Assembly (NCBI GenBank): GCA_029864235.1
Contig: JAOTTW010000003.1
Coordinates: 3,554 to 35,553 of the forward strand
Direction of reading: 5' to 3'
DNA: 32,000 bases
Source of the DNA: Nitrosopumilus sp.
Lineage (GTDB): Archaea; Thermoproteota; Nitrososphaeria; Nitrososphaerales; Nitrosopumilaceae
Shown: positions 1 to 9,836 of the stretch, in pieces
Numbering within the stretch: position 1 is the stretch's first letter
How the letters are laid out: the number at the start of each line of letters is the position of its first letter
Notes under the pieces: model-generated
Databases searched by the model: none
The model's input: only the letters and a program-made list of their open reading frames with translations
What the model was told of the DNA's origin: nothing
Program-made: the position numbers and the translations under genes

Positions 1-604
1 CTTCATATTTTTTAACATCTAAAATAGGAATTCCAGTATCAAATGAGCCTTCTTTTGTAGCTCGAGTAATCATAGAACTGACCACTGAATGCGGGTTTCG
101 AGCAATGTTAATAAAAATGGCATCTGGAAATATTTTTTTAATTGCATTTAATCTCATTATGTTTTGAGGTGCCTTGTTGAGAAATCTAGATTTTTTTTGT
201 CTAATAATTACTTCAGAAAGTATTTTTACTAAATTGATTTGTTTTTCTTTGGGAATGCTTTCAATAAATTTATTCCCGAAATATTGTCTCCAAAATGTTT
301 CACCCTCAATTGGGAATGATCCTGGAGGTAAATTGTCAAATCTTTCAGGGTTTAGATCGGCTCTACCAAAAACTGCTAAACGATGCTCATCCCTTGGAAT
401 TTTTTTATTCTGTTCAGTTAATCGTGAAAAATAATTTTTTAATTGTTCTTTTTCTTCTTTTGAGATCCATAACTTGAGATCATCTACACCAAACCATGCC
501 AATTCAGGATGAGCGCATAGGGTTTGATGTAATAATCCAGTTCCTGAGCGTGGAACTCCTATAATGAAAATTGGTTTGTCTATTTGATAATATTTGGAGT
601 CCAT
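1..604 (-). CDS. Sulfotransferase, stand-alone (N-terminal ~200 aa; C-terminus runs off the window)
   Basis: Absent from the ORF track because it is open at the window edge. My translation of the minus strand from ATG at 604-602 gives MDSKYYQIDKPIFIIGVPRSGTGLLHQTLCAHPELAWF...SRFLNKAPQNIMRLNAIKKIFPDAIFINIARNPHSVVSSM. It has a PAPS 5'-phosphosulfate loop (PRSGTG) and a 3'-phosphate motif (ARNPHSVVSS). It is collinear with the C-terminal half of 653..2350. Confidence 0.8.
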   Translation of the reverse strand, partial: MDSKYYQIDKPIFIIGVPRSGTGLLHQTLCAHPELAWFGVDDLKLWISKEEKEQLKNYFSRLTEQNKKIPRDEHRLAVFGRADLNPERFDNLPPGSFPIEGETFWRQYFGNKFIESIPKEKQINLVKILSEVIIRQKKSRFLNKAPQNIMRLNAIKKIFPDAIFINIARNPHSVVSSMITRATKEGSFDTGIPILDVKKYE

Positions 605-652: not shown

Positions 653-2350
653 TTATAATTTAAAGGGATACTTCATTTTATCTATAGAGTCTTGTACTAT
701 ATCAAAGATTTTTTGTTGATCTTCTTGGGTTAATTCAGTCTTCCATTTTTCAGTAGTATCCCGAATTTTTCTAGGCATCATTTGAGATATGGGTTCAGGA
801 ACCTTGAGTTCACAAAATTCCAATATGCTCTTTAAGCTCATTTCTGGTTTTGAAATAAAATCTTCATAAATTATGGTCATAAAATTTTCTGAATTTTGTT
901 GCTTTAAAAATTCTAAAGTATAATTAGTAATATCTTTGTACCCTTGTGCATAATACTTTATTAATTCATTATTTTTTAGGCTGTTTTGAAAATTTAATTT
1001 ATTCTCTTTAATCGCCCAGTCTATATTGAATTGACCTTCATTTTTTGTTCTTGTCAACATTGAAGATATAACAGAACGTGGATCTCGGGCAATGTTAATG
1101 AATTTTGCATCAGGAAAAATTTGTTTTATTGCAAATATTCTAACAGTATTTTGTGGTGCTTTATTCAAGAATCTGGATTTACCTTGGGTTAATAATATTT
1201 TATTAAGTATTTTTTTTAAATCTCTTTTTTTATCTGAAGAAATTTTGGATTCATAAAATTGGATGTAGCGTCTCCAGAAGGATTCAGCTTCAATAGGTAT
1301 CTTAGAAGTGCCTTCTAGAGGTTTTGCTTGGTTAAGGCCAAAAACAAATAATGAACCTTCTGTTCTAGGAATTTTTTCATTGTTCTCTTTCATTTTTAAA
1401 AATTTTTTGCAAAATTTTTCTTGTTCATCTAATGGAATTAAAAATTTAAGATCTTCATGAGAAAACCATGCAAGATCTGGATGCATAGACATTATTATGT
1501 TTAACATGGTAGTTCCAGATCTAGGAACACCAATGATAAAAATTGGTTTTTTAATTGATTCATAATTGTAAAATTCTTCTTGATTTTTTGGTCTTAGATT
1601 CTCATGTTTAAGAGAGTTTATTTTGTAAGATTTAACTAATTCATCATAGTGTGAGATAACTTCTTTGGGTTTTCCTATTTTTAAAATTTTACCCTTATCA
1701 ATTAGAATAACACGATCAGATAAATCTGAAATCATATTAATGCTATGAGTTGTATATACAATTGTTTTCTTTTGTTTTTTAAAATTCAGAAATACTTCAA
1801 AACTTTTTTCTTTAAAGACAGCATCACCTACTGCTAATACCTCATCAACTAAAAGAATGTCAGGATTGATTTGGATTGCTGTAGAAAATGCTAATCGAGA
1901 TCTCATTCCTGTAGAGTAATCTTTGAGTTTTAATTTACGAAATTTTTCAAGTTCTGCAAATTTTATTATACCATCAATTTTTTTCTTTATTTCATTTTTG
2001 GTAAGTCCTAAAAGGAGTCCATATATTAGGATATTTTCTTCTGCATCTAATTCTTTTTTAAATCCTGTTCCAATTTGCAGTAATGGTGCTAAATATCCAT
2101 TAATTACTACAGAGCCTGAATCAGGCTGATAAATGCCCGAAATAGTCCTCAGTAATGTTGTTTTACCACTTCCATTTAGTCCGATTATTCCTATTGTTTC
2201 ACCCTTTTCTATTGTAAGAGAGATATTATCAAGGGCTAAAATTTGATTTGAAGGTTTATTGGGCAGATGAGATTTTTTTGAAATGTTTTTGTTTTTATTT
2301 AGATCGAATTTCTTAGATACATTTGATAGTTGTATTGCAATAGAATTCAA
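653..2350 (-). CDS. Polysaccharide-export ABC transporter ATP-binding protein (Wzt/TagH-like) fused to a C-terminal sulfotransferase domain
   Basis: 565 aa. The N-terminal ~240 aa carry Walker A GLNGSGKTT, signature YSTGMRSRLAF (the YSxGM variant typical of Wzt/TagH), Walker B ILLVDE and an H-loop TTHS. Residues ~266-565 carry sulfotransferase motifs IIGVPRSGTT and INIARDPRSVISS. A 2-bp gap separates it from the upstream permease gene. Confidence 0.85.
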   Translation of the reverse strand: MNSIAIQLSNVSKKFDLNKNKNISKKSHLPNKPSNQILALDNISLTIEKGETIGIIGLNGSGKTTLLRTISGIYQPDSGSVVINGYLAPLLQIGTGFKKELDAEENILIYGLLLGLTKNEIKKKIDGIIKFAELEKFRKLKLKDYSTGMRSRLAFSTAIQINPDILLVDEVLAVGDAVFKEKSFEVFLNFKKQKKTIVYTTHSINMISDLSDRVILIDKGKILKIGKPKEVISHYDELVKSYKINSLKHENLRPKNQEEFYNYESIKKPIFIIGVPRSGTTMLNIIMSMHPDLAWFSHEDLKFLIPLDEQEKFCKKFLKMKENNEKIPRTEGSLFVFGLNQAKPLEGTSKIPIEAESFWRRYIQFYESKISSDKKRDLKKILNKILLTQGKSRFLNKAPQNTVRIFAIKQIFPDAKFINIARDPRSVISSMLTRTKNEGQFNIDWAIKENKLNFQNSLKNNELIKYYAQGYKDITNYTLEFLKQQNSENFMTIIYEDFISKPEMSLKSILEFCELKVPEPISQMMPRKIRDTTEKWKTELTQEDQQKIFDIVQDSIDKMKYPFKL

Positions 2351-2352
2351 CT

Positions 2353-3132
2353 TTATAGCTTCTCCACGATATTGTGTTCCAATTTTTTAAACATTATAAA
2401 TCCAATAAATAAAATTCCAAAGACAAAAATTGTCGTATAAAACCATTCTACTAATTCAGGAATTTGATTAAAAACTATAATTTTATGTGCCATTTCAACA
2501 ATCTGTCCAAAGGGGTTTATTTTTTGAATATCCAAAAGCATTCCTTCAACTTCGGTTGTATACCAAAAAATCGGAGATAGAAATAGTAAGGCATAAACGA
2601 AGATGGTCCAAAATTGCTTGAGATCTTTAATATATACATACAATATTGAGAGAATGTAATTCATTCCTAGTACAAGTAATAAAAATAATATTAACAGTAT
2701 AGGGAGATATAAAATATTCCAACCAGGGGTAAAATCAAAAACTGGCATTAATCCAAAAAGTACTCCTAGTTCAACAAATAATAAAATACAAGTTGTTGTT
2801 GTTGCAATAACTGGAAATAGTTCCTTTTTTATTTTAAGTGATTTTAAAAGAGAAGAATTTTCTTGTAAACTTCCAAGCCCTGTTGTGGTTCCTCTGGAAA
2901 ATAAATGGTAAAAGAGAACTCCAGTAATTAGATAAATTCCAAAATTTTCTTTTGGTATTTCCCTAATGCTAGAAAAAACAACAAACAATATCAGAAACAT
3001 TAGTAATGGTTCTAGTCCAGTCCAAACCAATCCAAGATAACTTCCTTTGAATCTGAGCTTAATATTCATCCATGAAAAATGAAGAATCAAAGAACGTTTA
3101 TCCAACAATTCAATCAATGGGAATTTAACCAA
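2353..3132 (-). CDS. ABC-2 type polysaccharide/teichoic-acid export permease (Wzm/TagG-like)
   Basis: 259 aa with about six hydrophobic spans. The size and profile match ABC-2 permeases, and it lies immediately upstream of the Wzt-like ATPase. Confidence 0.8.
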   Translation of the reverse strand: MVKFPLIELLDKRSLILHFSWMNIKLRFKGSYLGLVWTGLEPLLMFLILFVVFSSIREIPKENFGIYLITGVLFYHLFSRGTTTGLGSLQENSSLLKSLKIKKELFPVIATTTTCILLFVELGVLFGLMPVFDFTPGWNILYLPILLILFLLLVLGMNYILSILYVYIKDLKQFWTIFVYALLFLSPIFWYTTEVEGMLLDIQKINPFGQIVEMAHKIIVFNQIPELVEWFYTTIFVFGILFIGFIMFKKLEHNIVEKL

Positions 3133-3233: not shown

Positions 3234-4253
3234 TCATAGTTTCTTTTTTATAAAATCAATAGATTTGATAGGAGATGGGTCTATTTCAGATAGTACAGCA
3301 TTATAAATTGAGCAATAGTCTAAGAGATATATCAAATTGATAATTTTTGATAATATGCTTCCTTGAACTGACATAACTATTCTAAATTCAATTCCTTGTT
3401 TCTGAAAATATTCCTTTAAGATTTTCCACCTTTCTTTTGTTTTAATGTGGTCATCTTTACCTTCAATTAATATAGGTTGCAGATTTGAGCTTTGTTCCCA
3501 TGCAACTATTCCATTATGACATGATTCAACTACATCCTCTACCATGATGTGTCTTTTTGAGTTCTCTTGAATTGAGTTTTTGAATCTTATAGCTGCAGAT
3601 TGTAAACCCCAAGGATAATAGACCAACGGTATACCTGAAATCCATTTGGCCAAAGATAGTGAAGGGTTGTTTTCATTCAAGTTAGATGATGAAATTAATT
3701 TTTGAGTATTTTCTAATATCTTTATTGATTGTGTGACATCTTTTTTCTTTATTGGTATAACAGGCTCTAAGATCTTTATCATGGAGTAAAGGAATACAGG
3801 AAACGATGCACGTGGAGAATGATGCATTTCTATTTTACGAAATTCAATATTATTTTTATTACAAAAATCCTGGATTTTTCCACCACTACTAAAGGCAATA
3901 ATTTTGTATTTTGATTTTGCTGCAGATTTTAATACAGATAGAGTCTCAGCAGTATTTCCAGAGATGCTAGTAGTTATGATCAAAGTTTTTTCATCTATAG
4001 TATTTGGCAGATGATATCCTTTAACTATTGAAACATGAGTACTAGTTTGAGACATAAGAGAAGAAAATACATCTCCTAAAGATCCCGAGCCTCCCATTCC
4101 TGAAAAAACAATATTATTAATTTCAGAAAAATTAACAGGTTCTAGATTTGAATTATAAGAATCAAAGGCTATTGTAGGCCATTTATCATAAATTTCATAC
4201 ATGTTTTTTGTATCAAATTTTTTTAATGTGTCAAAATTAAACAAGTAATTCAA
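3234..4253 (-). CDS. Bifunctional phosphoglucose/phosphomannose isomerase (SIS-domain, archaeal PGI/PMI family)
   Basis: 339 aa. It has the SIS motif FSGMGGSGSLGD followed by TSISGNTAET, and its length is typical of crenarchaeal-type PGI/PMI. Confidence 0.75.
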   Translation of the reverse strand: MNYLFNFDTLKKFDTKNMYEIYDKWPTIAFDSYNSNLEPVNFSEINNIVFSGMGGSGSLGDVFSSLMSQTSTHVSIVKGYHLPNTIDEKTLIITTSISGNTAETLSVLKSAAKSKYKIIAFSSGGKIQDFCNKNNIEFRKIEMHHSPRASFPVFLYSMIKILEPVIPIKKKDVTQSIKILENTQKLISSSNLNENNPSLSLAKWISGIPLVYYPWGLQSAAIRFKNSIQENSKRHIMVEDVVESCHNGIVAWEQSSNLQPILIEGKDDHIKTKERWKILKEYFQKQGIEFRIVMSVQGSILSKIINLIYLLDYCSIYNAVLSEIDPSPIKSIDFIKKKL

Positions 4254-4295: not shown

Positions 4296-5465
4296 ATGAG
4301 GTATTCTGTGAATGTTCTTCTTTTATCACAATTTTTTTCATCTACTAGAGGAGGTGGTGAATATCTATTTTACATAATAGCAGAGAGCCTAGCTAATAAT
4401 AATCACCAAGTATGGATTATCACAAATAAAATTGAAGATGAAAAATATGCTTTACATAAAAATATAAAAATAATTTTTGTACCACCAATTCTAAAATATC
4501 AAGGAGGATTACCTCCTTCAATTAGTGATAATATAAAATATCTATGGAATGGAATTCAAGCAGGAGTAAAAGTAGTAAAACAAAACAACATAGATATTAT
4601 TCATTCAAATAACTTTACACCAGCATTTGTTGGTAGTATTTTATCATTATTAACATCAAAAAAACATGTTACTTCAGTGTGGGATATTTTCACACTTTGT
4701 GGTTCTGATTATTGGAAAAGATGGACAGAGCAAACGGGAATATCTAAGATCAATCAATACATAGGTCCAATTTTTGAAAAATTATCTCTAAAAATCAAAT
4801 GTGATGCATTTCATACAATTAGTAATGCAAGTAAAAATGATTTGATAAAATTTGGTGCAAAAAAACCCATTTATGTAATTCCACCAACAATTAAAAAAAT
4901 TAAATTAATAGAAAATACATCCAATAATAAACAATTCATTTTCTTAGGAAGGTTAGTTTTTTATAAAAATATTGAAGTTTTGATCAAAGCAATCAAAATT
5001 GTAAAAATTCAAGATGATGAAATTAAATTATTTATTGTTGGAGGAGGGCCACAACTTGAAAGAATACAGAGCATTATAACAAATCATGGTCTTCAGAATA
5101 ACATTATTGTTAAAGGGTATGTAGATACAAAAGAAAAATTTGAACTTGTTTCACAATCAAATGCATTACTATTTCCAAGTGTATGCGAAGGATTTGGATT
5201 GGTGATTTTAGAAGCATTTTCTCAAAAAAAACCTGTGTTGGTTTCAAACATAGGACCAATGTCAGAGATTATAGAACATGAGAAAACGGGTTATGTTTTG
5301 GACTCAGATGATGAAAATATTTGGGCAGAACATATTATAAGATTAGCAAAAAATTTTGATGAATCAAAACAGATGGGTGAAAATGGCAATAAAGTACTAA
5401 AATCAAGGTATAATCTTGATGTTATGTATGAGAAATTAATTCAGATGTATAGTAATATTCTATGA
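4296..5465 (+). CDS. Glycosyltransferase, GT4 family (GT-B fold, retaining)
   Basis: 389 aa. The C-terminal half has the E-x7-E motif EGFGLVILEA followed by EHEKTGYV, typical of GT4 mannosyl/glucosyltransferases. Confidence 0.85.
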   Translation: MRYSVNVLLLSQFFSSTRGGGEYLFYIIAESLANNNHQVWIITNKIEDEKYALHKNIKIIFVPPILKYQGGLPPSISDNIKYLWNGIQAGVKVVKQNNIDIIHSNNFTPAFVGSILSLLTSKKHVTSVWDIFTLCGSDYWKRWTEQTGISKINQYIGPIFEKLSLKIKCDAFHTISNASKNDLIKFGAKKPIYVIPPTIKKIKLIENTSNNKQFIFLGRLVFYKNIEVLIKAIKIVKIQDDEIKLFIVGGGPQLERIQSIITNHGLQNNIIVKGYVDTKEKFELVSQSNALLFPSVCEGFGLVILEAFSQKKPVLVSNIGPMSEIIEHEKTGYVLDSDDENIWAEHIIRLAKNFDESKQMGENGNKVLKSRYNLDVMYEKLIQMYSNIL

Positions 5466-5566: not shown

Positions 5567-5574
5567 GATATAAT
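5567..5574 (+). promoter_or_regulatory. Putative TATA box (gatataat) upstream of the polytopic membrane protein gene
   Basis: It is centred about 25 nt upstream of ATG 5595. The TTG at 5574 used by the ORF track lies inside this element. Confidence 0.35.
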
Positions 5575-5594
5575 TGAAAAATAATCATTCAAAC

Positions 5595-6800
5595 ATGTCA
5601 GATTCAAAATCTATTTCTTGGATTATTTTCTTGTTTTCTGTAACAATTGTATCGATTAGTTTTATTTCAGTTGTTTTTCCTGCACTAATTTTAGTTTCAA
5701 ACACAATAATTGTACCAGGAATTGAATCAGTTACTCCAGATCCCTACGAACCAGGAGTCTGGTCAGCAGGATTAATTATATCCAATATTATCATTTTTGG
5801 TTTAACATTTTTGTATTTTAAGAACAAACTTCCAAGATCAATATTGGATTTTTTTAAGAAATTATTTAAATTTGAGGTTTCGAAAAAAATAGCTTTTATT
5901 TGTATTACAATATTACTAATGATATACATTTCTGCAAGCATATCAGAATTATCAACTGAAGAAAAATTTGAAGACTATAACAATGTCAAAAATAGAGTAG
6001 AAGGATGGTCAGTAGATCAGGCTTTAGGATCATTTGAACCTCATGTAAGATATTTTCTAATTTCAACTTCGATGATGTTATTTGGAAATTTCAAAGTAAT
6101 TCCACTTCTAGCAAGCATTGTATTACTAATTATGATTTATTTTACTACAAAAACTATTGCTCAGAAAAGGTTTGCAGGAATTGTTTCGATGGTTATTGTA
6201 TTACAAAGTAATTTATTTCTGACATATGATACATCTGTTGCTTACACAAATTTTTGGATATTATTTTATCTTTTATCGTTATTTTTTGTTTTCAAGTTTT
6301 GGCCCTTATCACCTGTATCTTATCTTCTTTCAATTTCAGCAAAAGCACTTACAGTAACCTTTTTACCAATGTCAATATTTTTTATTCTAAGAAGTCAAAT
6401 TTCAAAAAAACAAAAAATACTTGCTGCAGGAATAACTGCTGCAATAATAATTGTGGGCGGAGTGGCAACGATGGGGAGCAATTTATCACCTACTACAGAA
6501 ACAGAAGAAGAGTTTAGTGTAAAAGAGTTTTGGATGGGTTTTACATCTTTTTCATATCAGCTAAGATTTGATGGGCTTGTAATTTTATTTATGATTCCAC
6601 TAATTGTAGGACTATTTTTATTGTCAAAAAGTGGAGTAAAAAATGCAGAATCAATTATGGTGTTAATTGCAGGAATGTTGTTGATTGCACCAATATTGAC
6701 AGGATTTACCAATCAAACAAATCAGCCATATAGATTTGTACCACTGATAGTATTTTTTGCAATGGGTGTTGGAGTATTGTTATCTAAGAGACAGGCCTGA
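5595..6800 (+). CDS. Polytopic integral membrane protein, possible GT-C-fold glycosyltransferase or glycan polymerase
   Basis: The ORF track gives 5574..6800 from a TTG. I prefer the in-frame ATG at 5595 (MSDSKSISW...). There are about 10-11 hydrophobic helices and an acidic first loop (TPDPYEPG). It lies next to GT4 in the glycan cluster. I recognise no catalytic motif with certainty. Confidence 0.55.
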   Translation: MSDSKSISWIIFLFSVTIVSISFISVVFPALILVSNTIIVPGIESVTPDPYEPGVWSAGLIISNIIIFGLTFLYFKNKLPRSILDFFKKLFKFEVSKKIAFICITILLMIYISASISELSTEEKFEDYNNVKNRVEGWSVDQALGSFEPHVRYFLISTSMMLFGNFKVIPLLASIVLLIMIYFTTKTIAQKRFAGIVSMVIVLQSNLFLTYDTSVAYTNFWILFYLLSLFFVFKFWPLSPVSYLLSISAKALTVTFLPMSIFFILRSQISKKQKILAAGITAAIIIVGGVATMGSNLSPTTETEEEFSVKEFWMGFTSFSYQLRFDGLVILFMIPLIVGLFLLSKSGVKNAESIMVLIAGMLLIAPILTGFTNQTNQPYRFVPLIVFFAMGVGVLLSKRQA

Positions 6801-7230
6801 TAAAGGTCCATATTGACTCCAAAGTATCACCTGAAATTGTAGTGTAACCATCATGAGCAAATCTTGCAAGAAGAATAGGCTTTCCATTGATATTATCGTG
6901 TAGATTAGTGCTTGCAACTAGTCCCTCAGAATCAAATGATTGAGTTTGTACCCTTCTTATTACCTGATATTGTTTTTCATCAATTGTTATTATGGGATCA
7001 TTTCCTCTAGATGCTTCAAAATCCAAAAATGAATCAAGTGCTGTGAGATTAAGATTGGTAAATTTAGATGATTCAAGATATGTTACTAGTTGACCATCAG
7101 AATTTCTCAAGCTAGTCTGCACAAAGATAAAGATATTATCTTTAATTTCAGTTTCAAAGGAACCAAAAGAACTACCCATTAGTGAGAAGATAGTAAGAAA
7201 AAAGATTCCAATAATTACAAATTTGTACAC
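6784..7230 (-). CDS. Hypothetical secreted or membrane-anchored protein
   Basis: 148 aa. It has an N-terminal hydrophobic signal/anchor (MYKFVIIGIFFLTIFSLMGSSFG) and no recognisable family. Confidence 0.55.
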   Translation of the reverse strand: MYKFVIIGIFFLTIFSLMGSSFGSFETEIKDNIFIFVQTSLRNSDGQLVTYLESSKFTNLNLTALDSFLDFEASRGNDPIITIDEKQYQVIRRVQTQSFDSEGLVASTNLHDNINGKPILLARFAHDGYTTISGDTLESIWTFIRPVS

Positions 7231-7256: not shown

Positions 7257-8597
7257 TTAATTTGCTGTTTTTATTGTCTCTTTTCCAAGCAGATGATTAT
7301 ACAAAGAGATAGCCTCTTCCTCATCTTTTGGTCCAACAATTACTGCAGAGCCTTTCTTCATGAAGGTAACTGACATTTCATTTGTTCTAAGAGATAGTCC
7401 CAACTCGCCTTGGTTTTCAACTAGAAATCCCTGTTGTTTTGCAGTGTTTGTAACACTGTTAACATCAAGATCAAAAGTACTAGTTGGAGTAATAGAGAAG
7501 GTCCTCTTTCCTCTGTTTCTACCACAGAGTTCTTCAAGAATTAATTCTTCTTTTAAAACTTCTTCGGCCTTACCTGTACCACACACAGGACATTCTTCTG
7601 CTCTAAATGTACGAGTGTTTGTAAAGTCTAGATTCTCAATGTCTATGTGTAAAATTTTATCTGACAAGCTTGGTTTTTTGCCTAAAATTACTTTAACTGC
7701 TTCTGCCACTTCAATTCCTCCAACTATAGATAAGATGGAAGGATGCACTCCCTCGATACTACAGGTAGGCATCAAGTCCTCATCTAGAGCTGGAAACATA
7801 CAATGATAGCATGCACTAGTTCTTGGGAGTATTGTAAATATCTGCCCAGAAACTCCTACTGCCGCACCTGTAACAAACGGTATTCCAAATTTTACACATG
7901 CCTTGTTTAGGGCATATCTTGCATTAACACTATCAAGTGCATCTATTACAATATCGCATCCTTCAACAACTTCAAGCGCAGTATAATCATTTACAGATAC
8001 TGCTAATGCCTCTATCTTACAGTCAGGATTTAATTTCTTTAATTTCTTTGCTGCAACTTCGACTTTTACTTGCCCAATATCATCCTCATCAAACATTGTT
8101 TGTCTATGCAAGTTTGATAATTCGATTACATCTCTGTCAACAATTCTTAAAGTACCAACACCCATTGCAGCTAGTCTTGTAGTAATTGGGTTTCCAAGAC
8201 CTCCAGTTCCAACAACACATATTTTAGCATTTTTTAATTTTAGTTGTCCTTGATAACCAATTTCTTCAAGCATTATTTGTCTTGAGTATCTGTCAAGTTC
8301 TTTTGCAGATAATTCCTGTGAACCTCCAGCAACTGCAGGTAGAATGTAGACTTCATCTCCGTTTTTAAGAGGAGTTTCCATACCACCTGAAAACTTTGCA
8401 TTTTTTCCATTAACGTAAATGTTAATTAAAGAACGTGGAGTTCCATCAGTCTCCAAGACTCTTCTCTTAAAGTCATCACCCATAGATTCAGATATTTTTG
8501 TAAAGGCATCTGTAAGTGAATCAGCTAAAATCTCTGTTTTCTTTTCTCCTCCACCTTGATTTAATACAGATGGAATGGTAAATGTGATTTTTGCCAT
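7257..8597 (-). CDS. Fusion of a MoaD/ThiS-like ubiquitin-fold sulfur-carrier domain with a ThiF/MoeB/UbaA-type E1 adenylyltransferase, plus an uncharacterised ~95-aa C-terminal domain
   Basis: 446 aa. Residues 1-92 match the MoaD/ThiS pattern (NIYVNGK...GGMETPLKNGDEVYILPAVAGG), with the diglycine at residues 91-92. The E1 domain begins directly afterwards (LSAKELDRYSRQIML, GTGGLG, DRDVIELSNLHRQ). It has Zn motifs CYHC and CPVCG and a candidate active-site Cys in PTCSIEG. The start abuts the stop of 8598..9836. Confidence 0.85.
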   Translation of the reverse strand: MAKITFTIPSVLNQGGGEKKTEILADSLTDAFTKISESMGDDFKRRVLETDGTPRSLINIYVNGKNAKFSGGMETPLKNGDEVYILPAVAGGSQELSAKELDRYSRQIMLEEIGYQGQLKLKNAKICVVGTGGLGNPITTRLAAMGVGTLRIVDRDVIELSNLHRQTMFDEDDIGQVKVEVAAKKLKKLNPDCKIEALAVSVNDYTALEVVEGCDIVIDALDSVNARYALNKACVKFGIPFVTGAAVGVSGQIFTILPRTSACYHCMFPALDEDLMPTCSIEGVHPSILSIVGGIEVAEAVKVILGKKPSLSDKILHIDIENLDFTNTRTFRAEECPVCGTGKAEEVLKEELILEELCGRNRGKRTFSITPTSTFDLDVNSVTNTAKQQGFLVENQGELGLSLRTNEMSVTFMKKGSAVIVGPKDEEEAISLYNHLLGKETIKTAN

Positions 8598-9836
8598 TTA
8601 GTTTACTACCGCTGATATTTCTCCCACATCTGCTTTCATTACTTTTGGTTTTTGTAAAACTTGCATGATTGCCTCAGTTGCCTTGAGGCCATTTCCAGTA
8701 ACATAGCATACAACTTTATCATTTGAATCAATCTTGCCTTGTTCAACCATTTTTTGAAGAACAGATACAGAAACACCACCTGCAGGTTCTGTAAATATCC
8801 CTTCAGTCTTTGCAAGTAGTAAGATTGCATCAAGTATTTCCTTATTGTTTGATTCTTCAGCAGACCCGTTGTATTGTTGTAATCTTTTCAGAACATATCT
8901 ACCATCACCAGGATCACCAATAGCTAAGCTTTTTGCAATCGTATCAGGATTTTCAACTGGAATTACTTCACTACTATTTTTCTTAAATGCATCAACAATT
9001 GGAGCACAGCCATGCGGTTGTGCGGCAATCATGTGCATATTTGAAACATCATTAAGTAATGAGATTTGTTGTAACTCTTCAAAACCTTTGCATATTGCAT
9101 TTAGCATTGCACCACTACCAACTGGAACTATTAATTGATCAGGAACTTGCCAATCAAGTTGTTCTGCTACTTCATAAGCAAGAGTCTTTGAGCCTTCAAC
9201 ATAGTAAGAACGCATATTGATATTTACAATGCCAATGCCTTTACTGTCACCAATTTGTGCAGCTATTCTATTTGCATCATCATATGTTCCATCAACTGCG
9301 ATATAGTTTGCACCATATGACAATGCTTGTGTAATTTTTGCCATTTCAATATCACTCGGAGCAAAGATGTGACATGGAAATCCACCTTTTGCTGCATGAG
9401 CTGCAGTAGCTGATGCTAAATTTCCTGTGGATGCACAGCCAACTGCCGACAATCCAAATTCTTTTGCCTTAGATACTGCAATTCCTGCTGGTCTGTCTTT
9501 AAATGAAAATGTAGGATTTACTGAATCGTTTTTGATATAGAGATTTTTCAATCCCAGTTTTTTTCCGAGATTTTCTGCTTTTGTAAGAGGAGTCATTCCA
9601 GCATCAATGCTTACAATGTTTGTTTTTTGTTCTATTGGAAGTAACTCAAAATATCTCCAATACGTTTTTTCACGAGTTACAAAAGTATTCTTTGAAACAG
9701 AAGGAAAATCATACTTTACATCTAAGGGGCCAAAACAATCATCACAAATATACTTGAAAGTAGATTTGTAATCCTTTTTACATTCTCTACATTGTAATGA
9801 TATTCTAGCCAAGATATATTCCTCCTTTGTTAGCAT
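8598..9836 (-). CDS. thrC: Threonine synthase family PLP enzyme with N-terminal zinc ribbon (ThrC or a ThrC-like sulfur-incorporating paralogue)
   Basis: 412 aa. It has an N-terminal Cys4 ribbon (CRECKK...CDDCFG), a PLP-lysine motif FSFKDRPA, and a fold-type II PLP enzyme layout (GNLASATAAHAA, GSGAM). Confidence 0.7.
   Translation of the reverse strand: MLTKEEYILARISLQCRECKKDYKSTFKYICDDCFGPLDVKYDFPSVSKNTFVTREKTYWRYFELLPIEQKTNIVSIDAGMTPLTKAENLGKKLGLKNLYIKNDSVNPTFSFKDRPAGIAVSKAKEFGLSAVGCASTGNLASATAAHAAKGGFPCHIFAPSDIEMAKITQALSYGANYIAVDGTYDDANRIAAQIGDSKGIGIVNINMRSYYVEGSKTLAYEVAEQLDWQVPDQLIVPVGSGAMLNAICKGFEELQQISLLNDVSNMHMIAAQPHGCAPIVDAFKKNSSEVIPVENPDTIAKSLAIGDPGDGRYVLKRLQQYNGSAEESNNKEILDAILLLAKTEGIFTEPAGGVSVSVLQKMVEQGKIDSNDKVVCYVTGNGLKATEAIMQVLQKPKVMKADVGEISAVVN

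Follow-up and report, generated by a model that had tools for sequence, protein, structure and literature searches.

A rare fusion of a Wzt-type glycan exporter ATPase and a sulfotransferase in Nitrosopumilus

We identified a gene in which a Wzt-type exporter ATPase is joined to a sulfotransferase (ST) in a 32,000-nucleotide stretch of DNA from Nitrosopumilus sp. (contig JAOTTW010000003.1 of assembly GCA_029864235.1, positions 3,554 to 35,553), referred to below as the window. The encoded protein consists, in order, of a complete Wzt/TagH-type ABC ATPase, or nucleotide-binding domain (NBD), a disordered linker of about 23 residues, and a complete ST of the 3'-phosphoadenosine 5'-phosphosulfate (PAPS) type. 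The architecture of this fusion is well supported, rare, convergent and uncharacterized, and a mechanism that links its two halves is plausible. Our preferred reading, to which we assign a probability of roughly 0.55, is that the gene encodes a bifunctional subunit whose tethered ST sulfates a glycan at the exporter, as the last step before or during translocation and in a 1:1 ratio with the pump. The fusion gene, its parts and the adjacent permease gene (wzm) are arranged in the window as follows.

653 to 2350, minus strand: Wzt-ST fusion gene, 565 codons plus stop (from the open reading frame list; identical to P0001)
1616 to 2350, minus strand: NBD, residues 1-245 of the fusion (Pfam, NCBIfam and PDB sequence matches; motifs)
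1547 to 1615, minus strand: inter-domain linker, residues 246-268, predicted to be disordered (predicted local distance difference test, pLDDT; ratio of nonsynonymous to synonymous substitution, dN/dS; breakpoint in locus L008)
656 to 1546, minus strand: PAPS-type ST domain, residues 269-565 (Pfam, AlphaFold2 model, Foldseek)
2353 to 3132, minus strand: Wzm-type ABC-2 permease, 259 residues (Pfam, NCBIfam and PDB sequence matches)

The fusion gene starts with a TTG codon located 2 nt past the TAA stop codon of wzm. The first-pass annotation of this DNA had placed a permease gene 2 bp upstream of a 565-residue open reading frame, and the two frames (2353-3132 and 653-2350) bear this out. Both the TTG start and the 2-nt gap are identical at all seven loci from which the junction was extracted, and a GTGGAG sequence upstream of the TTG is conserved in the same seven. 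Because of this 2-nt spacing, co-translation of Wzm and the fusion protein is implied. A scan for sigma-70 promoters and terminators returned matches at chance level only, and such a scan is not applicable to archaea. In public collections P0001 is identical to the window protein, and four further clusters (P0002-P0005) are 83-85% identical to it, each with a length of 566 residues. All five are labeled merely 'sulfotransferase [Nitrosopumilus sp.]' at NCBI.

The Pfam family ABC_tran matches residues 40-171 of the fusion (2.1e-22, 80.7 bits against a cut-off of 25). The NBD contains a Walker A motif (GLNGSGKTT, residues 57-65, nt 2156-2182), a signature of the Wzt-type YSxGM form (YSTGMRSRLAF, residues 145-155, nt 1886-1918) and a Walker B motif (ILLVDE, residues 165-170, nt 1841-1858). 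The Q-loop (nt 2060-2083), D-loop (nt 1823-1837) and H-loop (nt 1742-1753) are all present as well. The best NCBIfam models are two for TagH (1.3e-58 and 2.5e-52) and one for galactan Wzt (1.3e-54), and the next subfamily, DrrA (3e-38), is about twenty orders of magnitude weaker than Wzt/TagH; all of these scores fall under the equivalog cut-offs and so indicate membership at the level of the family, not orthology. Among PDB sequences the best match to the NBD is Wzt of Aquifex aeolicus (5.7e-54, alignment over residues 6-241), followed by TarH/TagH and mycobacterial RfbE.

The permease gene lies directly upstream of the fusion at 10 of 10 loci. Its 259-residue product matches Pfam ABC2_membrane (2.3e-10) and, weakly, the NCBIfam models for galactan Wzm and KpsM. 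The corresponding PDB sequences are galactan Wzm of Mycobacterium tuberculosis (9qfx, 1.3e-11) and Wzm of Aquifex (6oih and 6m96, about 7e-9), and TarG is also matched. From these matches the fusion and the permease are assigned to the Wzm/Wzt-TagGH family of ABC-2 (type V) glycan exporters. The fusion protein has no Pfam match to Wzt_C (PF14524), and its C-terminal half has the alpha/beta sulfotransferase fold. Because the Wzt_C module is absent, the protein is placed outside the class of Wzt that recognizes a cap through a carbohydrate-binding module (CBM), as in the O9a, O8 and O12 types.

The C-terminal half belongs to the PAPS sulfotransferase superfamily and matches both the profiles and the structures of these enzymes. 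Sulfotransfer_3 is found at residues 269-518 (3.8e-30, 106 bits against a cut-off of 27), and Sulfotransfer_1 also matches (8.7e-14). An AlphaFold2 model of residues 251-565 has a pLDDT of 90.4 and a predicted template modeling score (pTM) of 0.89. A Foldseek comparison of this model with the PDB gave 107 matches at E <=1e-3. The top 50 are all sulfotransferases, including TPST1/2, mycobacterial Stf9/Stf1, CurM-ST, 3-OST, NDST and cytosolic SULTs, each with a probability of 1.0. TPST1/2 and Stf1/Stf9 (3AP1, 5WRI, 9WWE, 2ZQ5, 2Z6V) share the fold of the domain (Foldseek E about 5e-9, TM 0.5-0.58). However, sequence identity to them is 14-17%, and the domain has an extra insertion of about 55 residues after the P-loop helix.

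The 5'-phosphosulfate-binding motif PRSGTT (residues 276-281, nt 1508-1525) is part of a GVPRSGTT sequence that is identical between the domain and TPST. The 3'-phosphate-binding motif is RDPRSVISS (residues 422-430, nt 1061-1087), and a segment FLNK(397)APQN is encoded at nt 1148-1171. With these, all of the NBD and ST motifs quoted in the first-pass annotation were located in the 565-residue protein. Residues R277, K397, R422 and S430 align with R78, K158 (catalytic), R183 and S191 of TPST2. Across fused and free members of the family, R277, G279, G274 and S430 are invariant and K397, R422, P276 and T280 are conserved in at least 90%; the PAPS-binding residues are conserved across orthologues, not degenerate. 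The candidates for the catalytic base are an H298-E299 pair, which corresponds in position to the TPST2 base E99 and is a majority residue in the family but not invariant, and the residues E331 and E354, each of them invariant or almost invariant. The model derives from a 54-sequence alignment, and by the model and the conserved residues the domain is complete and apparently functional.

The same fusion reading frame occurs in the same frame and synteny in at least 10 independent assemblies. Four are ENA assemblies (ERZ27296337, ERZ28013244, ERZ27296376 and ERZ27296365), and the others are Logan SRR7132224, JGI 3300022413, 3300022220, 3300022201 and 3300022202, and NCBI GCA_029862105.1. A stop codon between the halves is absent in 10 assemblies. 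This recurrence with an unchanged frame and start, in no fewer than 10 assemblies, and the uninterrupted linker rule out an assembly or frameshift artifact. Among four orthologues (Nei-Gojobori method, dS up to 0.67), dN/dS is 0.12-0.18 for the NBD and 0.08-0.20 for the ST domain. The linker has a near-neutral value of 0.85-2.0, from 23 residues and few sites; its frame is always kept and no stop ever occurs. In an AlphaFold model of the whole protein the ST is confident and linker residues 244-262 have pLDDT <50, and the NBD is only moderately confident as the model was built on a shallow multiple sequence alignment of fusions and STs. The pTM of 0.56 indicates that the predicted NBD and ST have no fixed packing against each other. 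Purifying selection on both domains, together with a disordered linker that drifts yet stays in frame, is the signature of a two-domain protein kept by selection, its halves joined by a flexible tether.

A domain-architecture search, as suggested in the first-pass annotation, was made with a two-domain profile against 5.8 billion protein clusters; it was word-indexed, and proteins matching both halves ranked first among its best 120 matches. Six clusters that combine ABC_tran and Sulfotransfer are among the matches listed (P0001-P0005 and the singleton P0048), and a word-indexed search of this kind could miss distant bacterial fusions with other ST families. None of the best 150 matches in an exhaustive search of 1.84 billion representatives is an NBD-ST fusion, and fusions cannot be counted from it, since a single-domain protein apparently stands for the 50% cluster of the query. 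Ten of its matches, of about 520-860 residues, were checked as possible fusions, and each was either a tandem NBD or an ST with a different N-terminus. No fusion was found in GTDB species-representative genomes with exact peptide patterns, by which only close relatives are detectable.

The literature searched contained nothing relevant on a fusion of Wzt or an ABC exporter with a sulfotransferase, or on Nitrosopumilus sulfotransferases, in agreement with the first-pass annotation, which knew of no characterized Wzt-ST fusion. A separate and unexplained gene with an ST domain lies beside wzt in Aeromonas salmonicida (PMC4483657), and ST upregulation is mentioned for biofilm-grown soil ammonia-oxidizing archaea (AOA) (PMC11561398).

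P0048, of 511 residues, is encoded together with a Wzm on another low-GC, Nitrosopumilaceae-like contig (L007:9220-11536), and its ST is shorter and very different. Compared with the window proteins, identity at this locus is 63% for the phosphoglucose isomerase, 53% for the NBD, 34% for Wzm and about 24% for the ST. The locus also contains GT2 glycosyltransferase genes, a methyltransferase gene and an RmlC-like gene. The NBD of P0048 and the P0001 clade are monophyletic in 0 of 60 NBD bootstraps, and in a neighbor-joining ST tree the ST of P0048 falls outside the whole Nitrosopumilus ST family. Because both trees part P0048 from the P0001 clade, the NBD-ST fusion is judged to have arisen at least twice independently.

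The same thaumarchaeal NBD subfamily (47-55% identity) is also fused to S-adenosylmethionine (SAM) methyltransferases. These proteins (P0044, P0050, P0055, P0060, P0077, P0119, P0307-P0311 and P0360) share with the Wzt-ST fusion the order of NBD, linker and tailoring enzyme and the adjacency of wzm and wzt, and the locus L040:2495-4557 has the wzm-wzt layout of the fusion loci. They differ in carrying a SAM methyltransferase instead of an ST and are somewhat commoner, with about 12 clusters against six among the matches listed. No description of them was found in the literature searched. Further partners of the NBD subfamily are YVTN propellers, LamG, N-terminal TPR arrays, DUF4214 and the classical Wzt_C. 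The thaumarchaeal Wzt subfamily appears unusually combinatorial, and this is apparently undescribed.

Sister strains carry the ST as a free gene. Locus L008 comes from the same metagenome as the fusion locus L003, and in it a free ST gene comes directly after the gene for the bifunctional phosphoglucose/phosphomannose isomerase (PGI/PMI). This free ST and the fused domain share 78% identity. DNA homology between the two loci (L008:1-3612 compared with L003:7361-12334) ends about 50 nt past the PGI stop codon and resumes at about codon 255 of the fusion, within the linker. The 1.6 kb that encodes Wzm and the NBD is absent from L008, and 212 nt of unrelated AT-rich DNA are in its place. L008 is effectively a natural domain-deletion control. 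In L008, L009 and L039 alike the ST is a free gene, and not by means of a stop codon. The free orthologues (P0007 and P0264-P0266) are 76-78% identical to the fused domain and occur in differing contexts with no exporter nearby. At L039:133-837 the gene upstream of the unfused ST encodes a DUF4214-like and SAM-methyltransferase protein, and downstream (L039:1929-2951, also L009:954-1979) is a 340-residue protein with a weak match to Gal-3-O-sulfotransferase (E 0.007). The islands of L039 and L009 mix several sulfation and methylation enzymes.

In the neighbor-joining ST tree, which has no bootstrap, the fused STs group in a single clade within the free STs. In the NBD tree the fused clade lies within NBD-only Wzt proteins of 249-252 residues (bootstraps 53/60 and 50/60, with 60/60 for the wider clade). 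These relatives include the Wzt of a Nitrosarchaeum metagenome-assembled genome (MAG) that has two free STs 2-3 kb downstream. At the unfused Nitrosarchaeum locus L011, Wzm, a 252-residue Wzt and two STs are encoded within 4 kb. We infer that the ancestor of the fused NBD was a module-less (CBM-less) Wzt. Because the nearest ATPase relatives are without a C-terminal module, the ST would have been appended to a Wzt of the CBM-less kind and would not have taken over from a cap-recognition module. The first-pass annotation had put the ST in the place of the recognition module; this stands for the position of the domain, and replacement does not fit the NBD-only relatives. The fusion would have originated when a wzm-NBD cassette was placed in frame ahead of an ST gene that already existed in one sublineage of Nitrosopumilus. 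Parsimony, applied to the ST tree, favors insertion of wzm and the NBD rather than their deletion in L008. The stretch unique to L008 has no homologue in L039 or L009, so the DNA itself gives no polarity.

The fusion is part of a group of glycan genes at the left edge of the window that continues past this edge. The right two-thirds of the window encode core metabolism, including the his operon, HMG-CoA reductase, TiaS, IMPDH and folate genes. The genes next to the exporter are as follows.

1 to 604, minus strand: stand-alone ST paralogue P0054, 327 residues, of which the first 201 codons are in the window (47% identity to the fused ST)
3234 to 4253, minus strand: bifunctional PGI/PMI (bact-PGI_C 2.4e-39; NCBIfam PGI/PMI 4.6e-59)
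4296 to 5465, plus strand: GT4-family glycosyltransferase, divergently transcribed (Glycos_transf_1 7.4e-43; Glyco_transf_4 3e-15; syntenic)
5574 to 6800, plus strand: 408-residue polytopic membrane protein of no known family (synteny)

In each of the fusion loci a free ST of the P0054 type follows the fusion 48 nt downstream, and P0054 itself is at L001:11747-12730. The PGI/PMI gene upstream of wzm is in synteny at every fusion locus and also at L007, and its product would supply hexose phosphate for GDP-mannose. The 408-residue membrane protein has no match in Pfam even at E values up to 10. Its counterparts, of 397-416 residues, adjoin the GT4 gene where the glycan island ends in all long fusion loci (L001, L003 and L035), and from this synteny we infer that it has a place in the system. 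It may be a candidate extracytoplasmic glycan transferase or ligase.

A longer contig extends the cluster. It begins with the polytopic membrane protein, GT4, PGI/PMI, Wzm, Wzt-ST and the free ST (306-327 residues). These are followed by a GDP-mannose 4,6-dehydratase (GMD, 1e-111), a short-chain dehydrogenase/reductase (SDR) of the reductase/epimerase kind, a GT4 and an unknown protein of 217 residues, and then by two GT1-family genes, a third ST (508 residues) and a GT2. The cluster comprises five or six GT4/GT1/GT2 glycosyltransferase genes and two STs besides the fused one. The SDR reductase/epimerase gene is intact at L001:13860-14738 and is not a pseudogene; the truncated version (128 residues) in L001 was a gene-caller start artifact, as tblastn gave one in-frame match over residues 1-293. 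The third ST (L001:19339-20865, about 7 kb past P0054) has an N-terminus of about 200 residues that is helical and DUF4214-like. It could conceivably be a terminator-like enzyme with a short ruler. No WbdD- or WbbB-like terminator was found at the locus.

Loci for D-rhamnan, the common polysaccharide antigen of Pseudomonas (PMC7820976), contain gmd, rmd, PMI, wzm, wzt, GT4 rhamnosyltransferase genes and an O-methyltransferase gene. In its gene content the cluster here closely resembles such bacterial ABC-dependent loci for 6-deoxyhexose or mannose polymers and shares with them PMI, GMD, an SDR reductase, wzm-wzt, several GT4s and a tailoring enzyme. The Pseudomonas product is a bacterial lipopolysaccharide tailored by methylation with an unfused enzyme, whereas here the product would be an archaeal envelope glycan and the ST is fused. 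The context argues for a glycan, not a protein, as the probable acceptor of the fused ST.

Two other features lie farther to the right in the window. The minus strand at 6784-7230 encodes a 148-residue protein with a hydrophobic, signal-like N-terminus and no family match. It is kept at 148 residues in L003 and L035 and is located where the glycan island meets the core genome. An abutting pair of genes on the same strand (7257-8597 and 8598-9836) encodes a 446-residue protein and a pyridoxal phosphate-dependent (PALP) enzyme. The 446-residue protein has an N-terminal ThiS-like (ubiquitin-fold sulfur-carrier) domain and a ThiF/E1-like adenylyltransferase domain, and may be a fused sulfur-carrier and activating pair for a sulfur-insertion pathway.

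ABC-dependent glycan assembly is described in two modes, one in which a terminator adds a cap that is read by a CBM and one in which a module-less Wzt is coupled to extension (PMC11231755). In the capped mode the partner terminator enzyme contains a coiled-coil molecular ruler (PMC11231755). The Wzm-Wzt(CBM) systems of E. coli O9a and K. pneumoniae O3, which have WbdD as terminator, and the Aquifex structural prototype (6OIH, 6M96, 7K2T and 8DKU) belong to the same transporter family as the fusion, have the same order of wzm then wzt, and likewise carry an extra C-terminal domain on a linker of the NBD. The O9a and O3 systems also modify the glycan with a non-sugar group in the cytoplasm before export, as we propose that the fusion system would. 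However, the fusion has an ST enzyme instead of a beta-sandwich CBM, an archaeal host and an apparently CBM-less ancestor, and no WbdD-like coiled-coil terminator was identified at its locus. In the CBM-less Wzm-Wzt of the K. pneumoniae O2a type, extension is obligatorily linked to export and there is no cap (PMC11231755). This type resembles the NBD-only relatives of the fusion (249-252 residues), which by analogy suggests that the transport mode underlying the fusion needs no cap recognition. What sets the fusion apart is the catalytic domain that such an NBD has gained.

By homology with the WzmWzt of Aquifex, TarGH and the exporter of mycobacterial galactan, a pair of Wzt NBDs would power the Wzm channel, and every NBD carries an apparently active and necessarily cytoplasmic PAPS-type ST on a flexible tether of about 20 residues. 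In our preferred reading, sugars derived from GDP-mannose (mannose and/or 6-deoxyhexose) would be assembled by the glycosyltransferases of the cluster into a lipid-linked glycan at the cytoplasmic face, and the free STs and the tethered ST would sulfate it on this face because PAPS exists only in the cytoplasm. The tether would put sulfation at the entrance of the transporter, as the final step before translocation or concurrent with it, and would hold the ST at 1:1 stoichiometry with the pump. The sulfated glycan would end on the cell envelope, on S-layer protein or lipid.

We count the completeness of both halves, the recurrence in at least 10 assemblies, the 2-nt spacing, purifying selection on both domains, the retained PAPS-site residues, the retained frame, the disordered linker, the glycan cluster context, the unfused association in Nitrosarchaeum, the two independent origins and the methyltransferase analogues in favor of tethered sulfation. 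Several observations weigh against it. Because L008, L009 and L039 keep a free ST with no transporter on contigs of 2.5-7 kb, tethering is not needed for the ST to work. The nearest solved relatives of the ST are protein-tyrosine and mycobacterial sulfotransferases, not glycan sulfotransferases. The fusion is limited to a narrow strain-level clade, and such a distribution would likewise be expected of a selectively near-neutral fusion in a flexible island. Also, neither sat nor cysC, for PAPS synthesis, was found in the 32-kb window, in the 10 kb that follow the window or in L001; MAGs of soil AOA reportedly carry sat, cysC and cysH (PMC9530722).

The main rival reading, which we think less probable, is that the protein is a passive 'Rosetta-stone' fusion. 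The ST would then act as its free orthologue does, on lipid-linked glycan at any place on the membrane, and the joining would be a matter of co-expression or a near-neutral by-product of the insertion of a cassette into a hypervariable glycosylation island, with neither kinetic nor spatial coupling to export. The free orthologues without an adjacent exporter would fit this, as would the absence of any GTDB representative from its narrow distribution, a disordered linker with no predicted domain interface, and the many unrelated domains to which the thaumarchaeal Wzt NBD is joined. However, the joining of NBD and ST arose twice independently and is paralleled by the NBD-methyltransferase fusions, and the frame persists, at dS up to 0.67, across a linker that drifts. 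Moreover, attachment to the NBD fixes the ST at the transporter, so that some spatial coupling would be unavoidable. The first-pass annotation suggested instead a 'sulfate-cap and export' machine, with sulfation possibly as chain terminator. In this model a terminal sulfate would stop extension and license export, and one chain would serve as both WbdD-like terminator and checkpoint. We regard this as unlikely, even though the ST is located where CBMs are in capped systems. The cytoplasmic addition of non-sugar caps (methyl, methyl-phosphate and pyruvate) ahead of export is well established (PMC11231755; PMC9445017), and the Wzt-methyltransferase fusions would fit a cap-adding logic, methyl being a known cap. 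However, the nearest NBD relatives are CBM-less and of the class that exports without cap recognition (PMC11231755), and an enzyme that releases its product is no recognition module. The known terminators bear long coiled-coil rulers, of which no evident example occurs in the fusion; the one ST of the cluster that has a helical extension is the separate 508-residue protein. The presence of two other STs would make a unique terminal role arbitrary, and the sister strain L008 has the ST without the pump.

A non-catalytic ST domain appears very improbable. It would be either a pseudo-CBM that binds glycan sulfated by the free STs or a sensor of PAPS or PAP that gates the ATPase, and its occupation of the Wzt_C position is in keeping with either role, as is the finding that glycan binding by the carbohydrate-binding domain of Aquifex WzmWzt modulates ATP hydrolysis (PMC9445017). 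However, the domain has kept every PAPS-site and catalytic-equivalent residue, is under selection as strong as that on the free enzymes, and differs by only 22-24% from free orthologues, which must be enzymatically active. The least probable of the alternatives is that the pump moves something other than a polyprenol-linked glycan, such as a sulfated lipid, a lipo-oligosaccharide or a peptide. ABC-2 exporters also move Nod factors and drugs. In rhizobia NodH acts with NodIJ on Nod factors, and in Xanthomonas RaxST acts with RaxB on a peptide, in both cases by cytoplasmic PAPS-dependent sulfation followed by ABC export. NodJ is an ABC-2 permease, and RaxST is TPST-like, as is the fused ST. The best solved ST relatives, tyrosylprotein sulfotransferases and mycobacterial Stf1/Stf9, are consistent with such a substrate, and so are the matches of NodI and DrrA models to the NBD (1e-27 to 1e-38). 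However, the NodH/NodIJ and RaxST/RaxB systems consist of separate proteins with lipo-chitooligosaccharide or peptide substrates, and their ABC subfamilies are other than Wzt/TagH. Here the closest affinities of the NBD and the permease are specifically with Wzt/TagH and Wzm/TarG, the gene lies inside a glycan cluster, and no genes for a peptide precursor or lipid synthesis are adjacent.

A broader idea, which we put forward tentatively, is that AOA have repeatedly evolved pumps that tailor the glycan as they export it, with a tethered ST (twice) or a methyltransferase modifying the glycan at the mouth of Wzm. Modification would then take place along the chain while it is threaded, or as an obligatory last step. 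Coupling of this kind would differ from both the CBM checkpoint and extension-coupled export, and it would directly set the anionic charge of the envelope in marine Nitrosopumilus strains.

In archaea there is hardly any work on the ABC-dependent export of glycans or on their sulfation by PAPS enzymes. A Wzt with its own tailoring enzyme would be a third arrangement beside the CBM checkpoint and direct coupling to chain extension. The fusion offers a natural system for asking about mechanical coupling of modification and translocation, and natural controls are available in the sister strains with an unfused ST and no pump, the second independent fusion and the methyltransferase analogues. Its practical value is limited for now, since the fusion is found only in uncultured strains. 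Surface charge is thought to be relevant to ammonium capture by marine ammonia oxidizers. A sulfated envelope glycan that varies between strains could thus bring ecological and phage-defense consequences.

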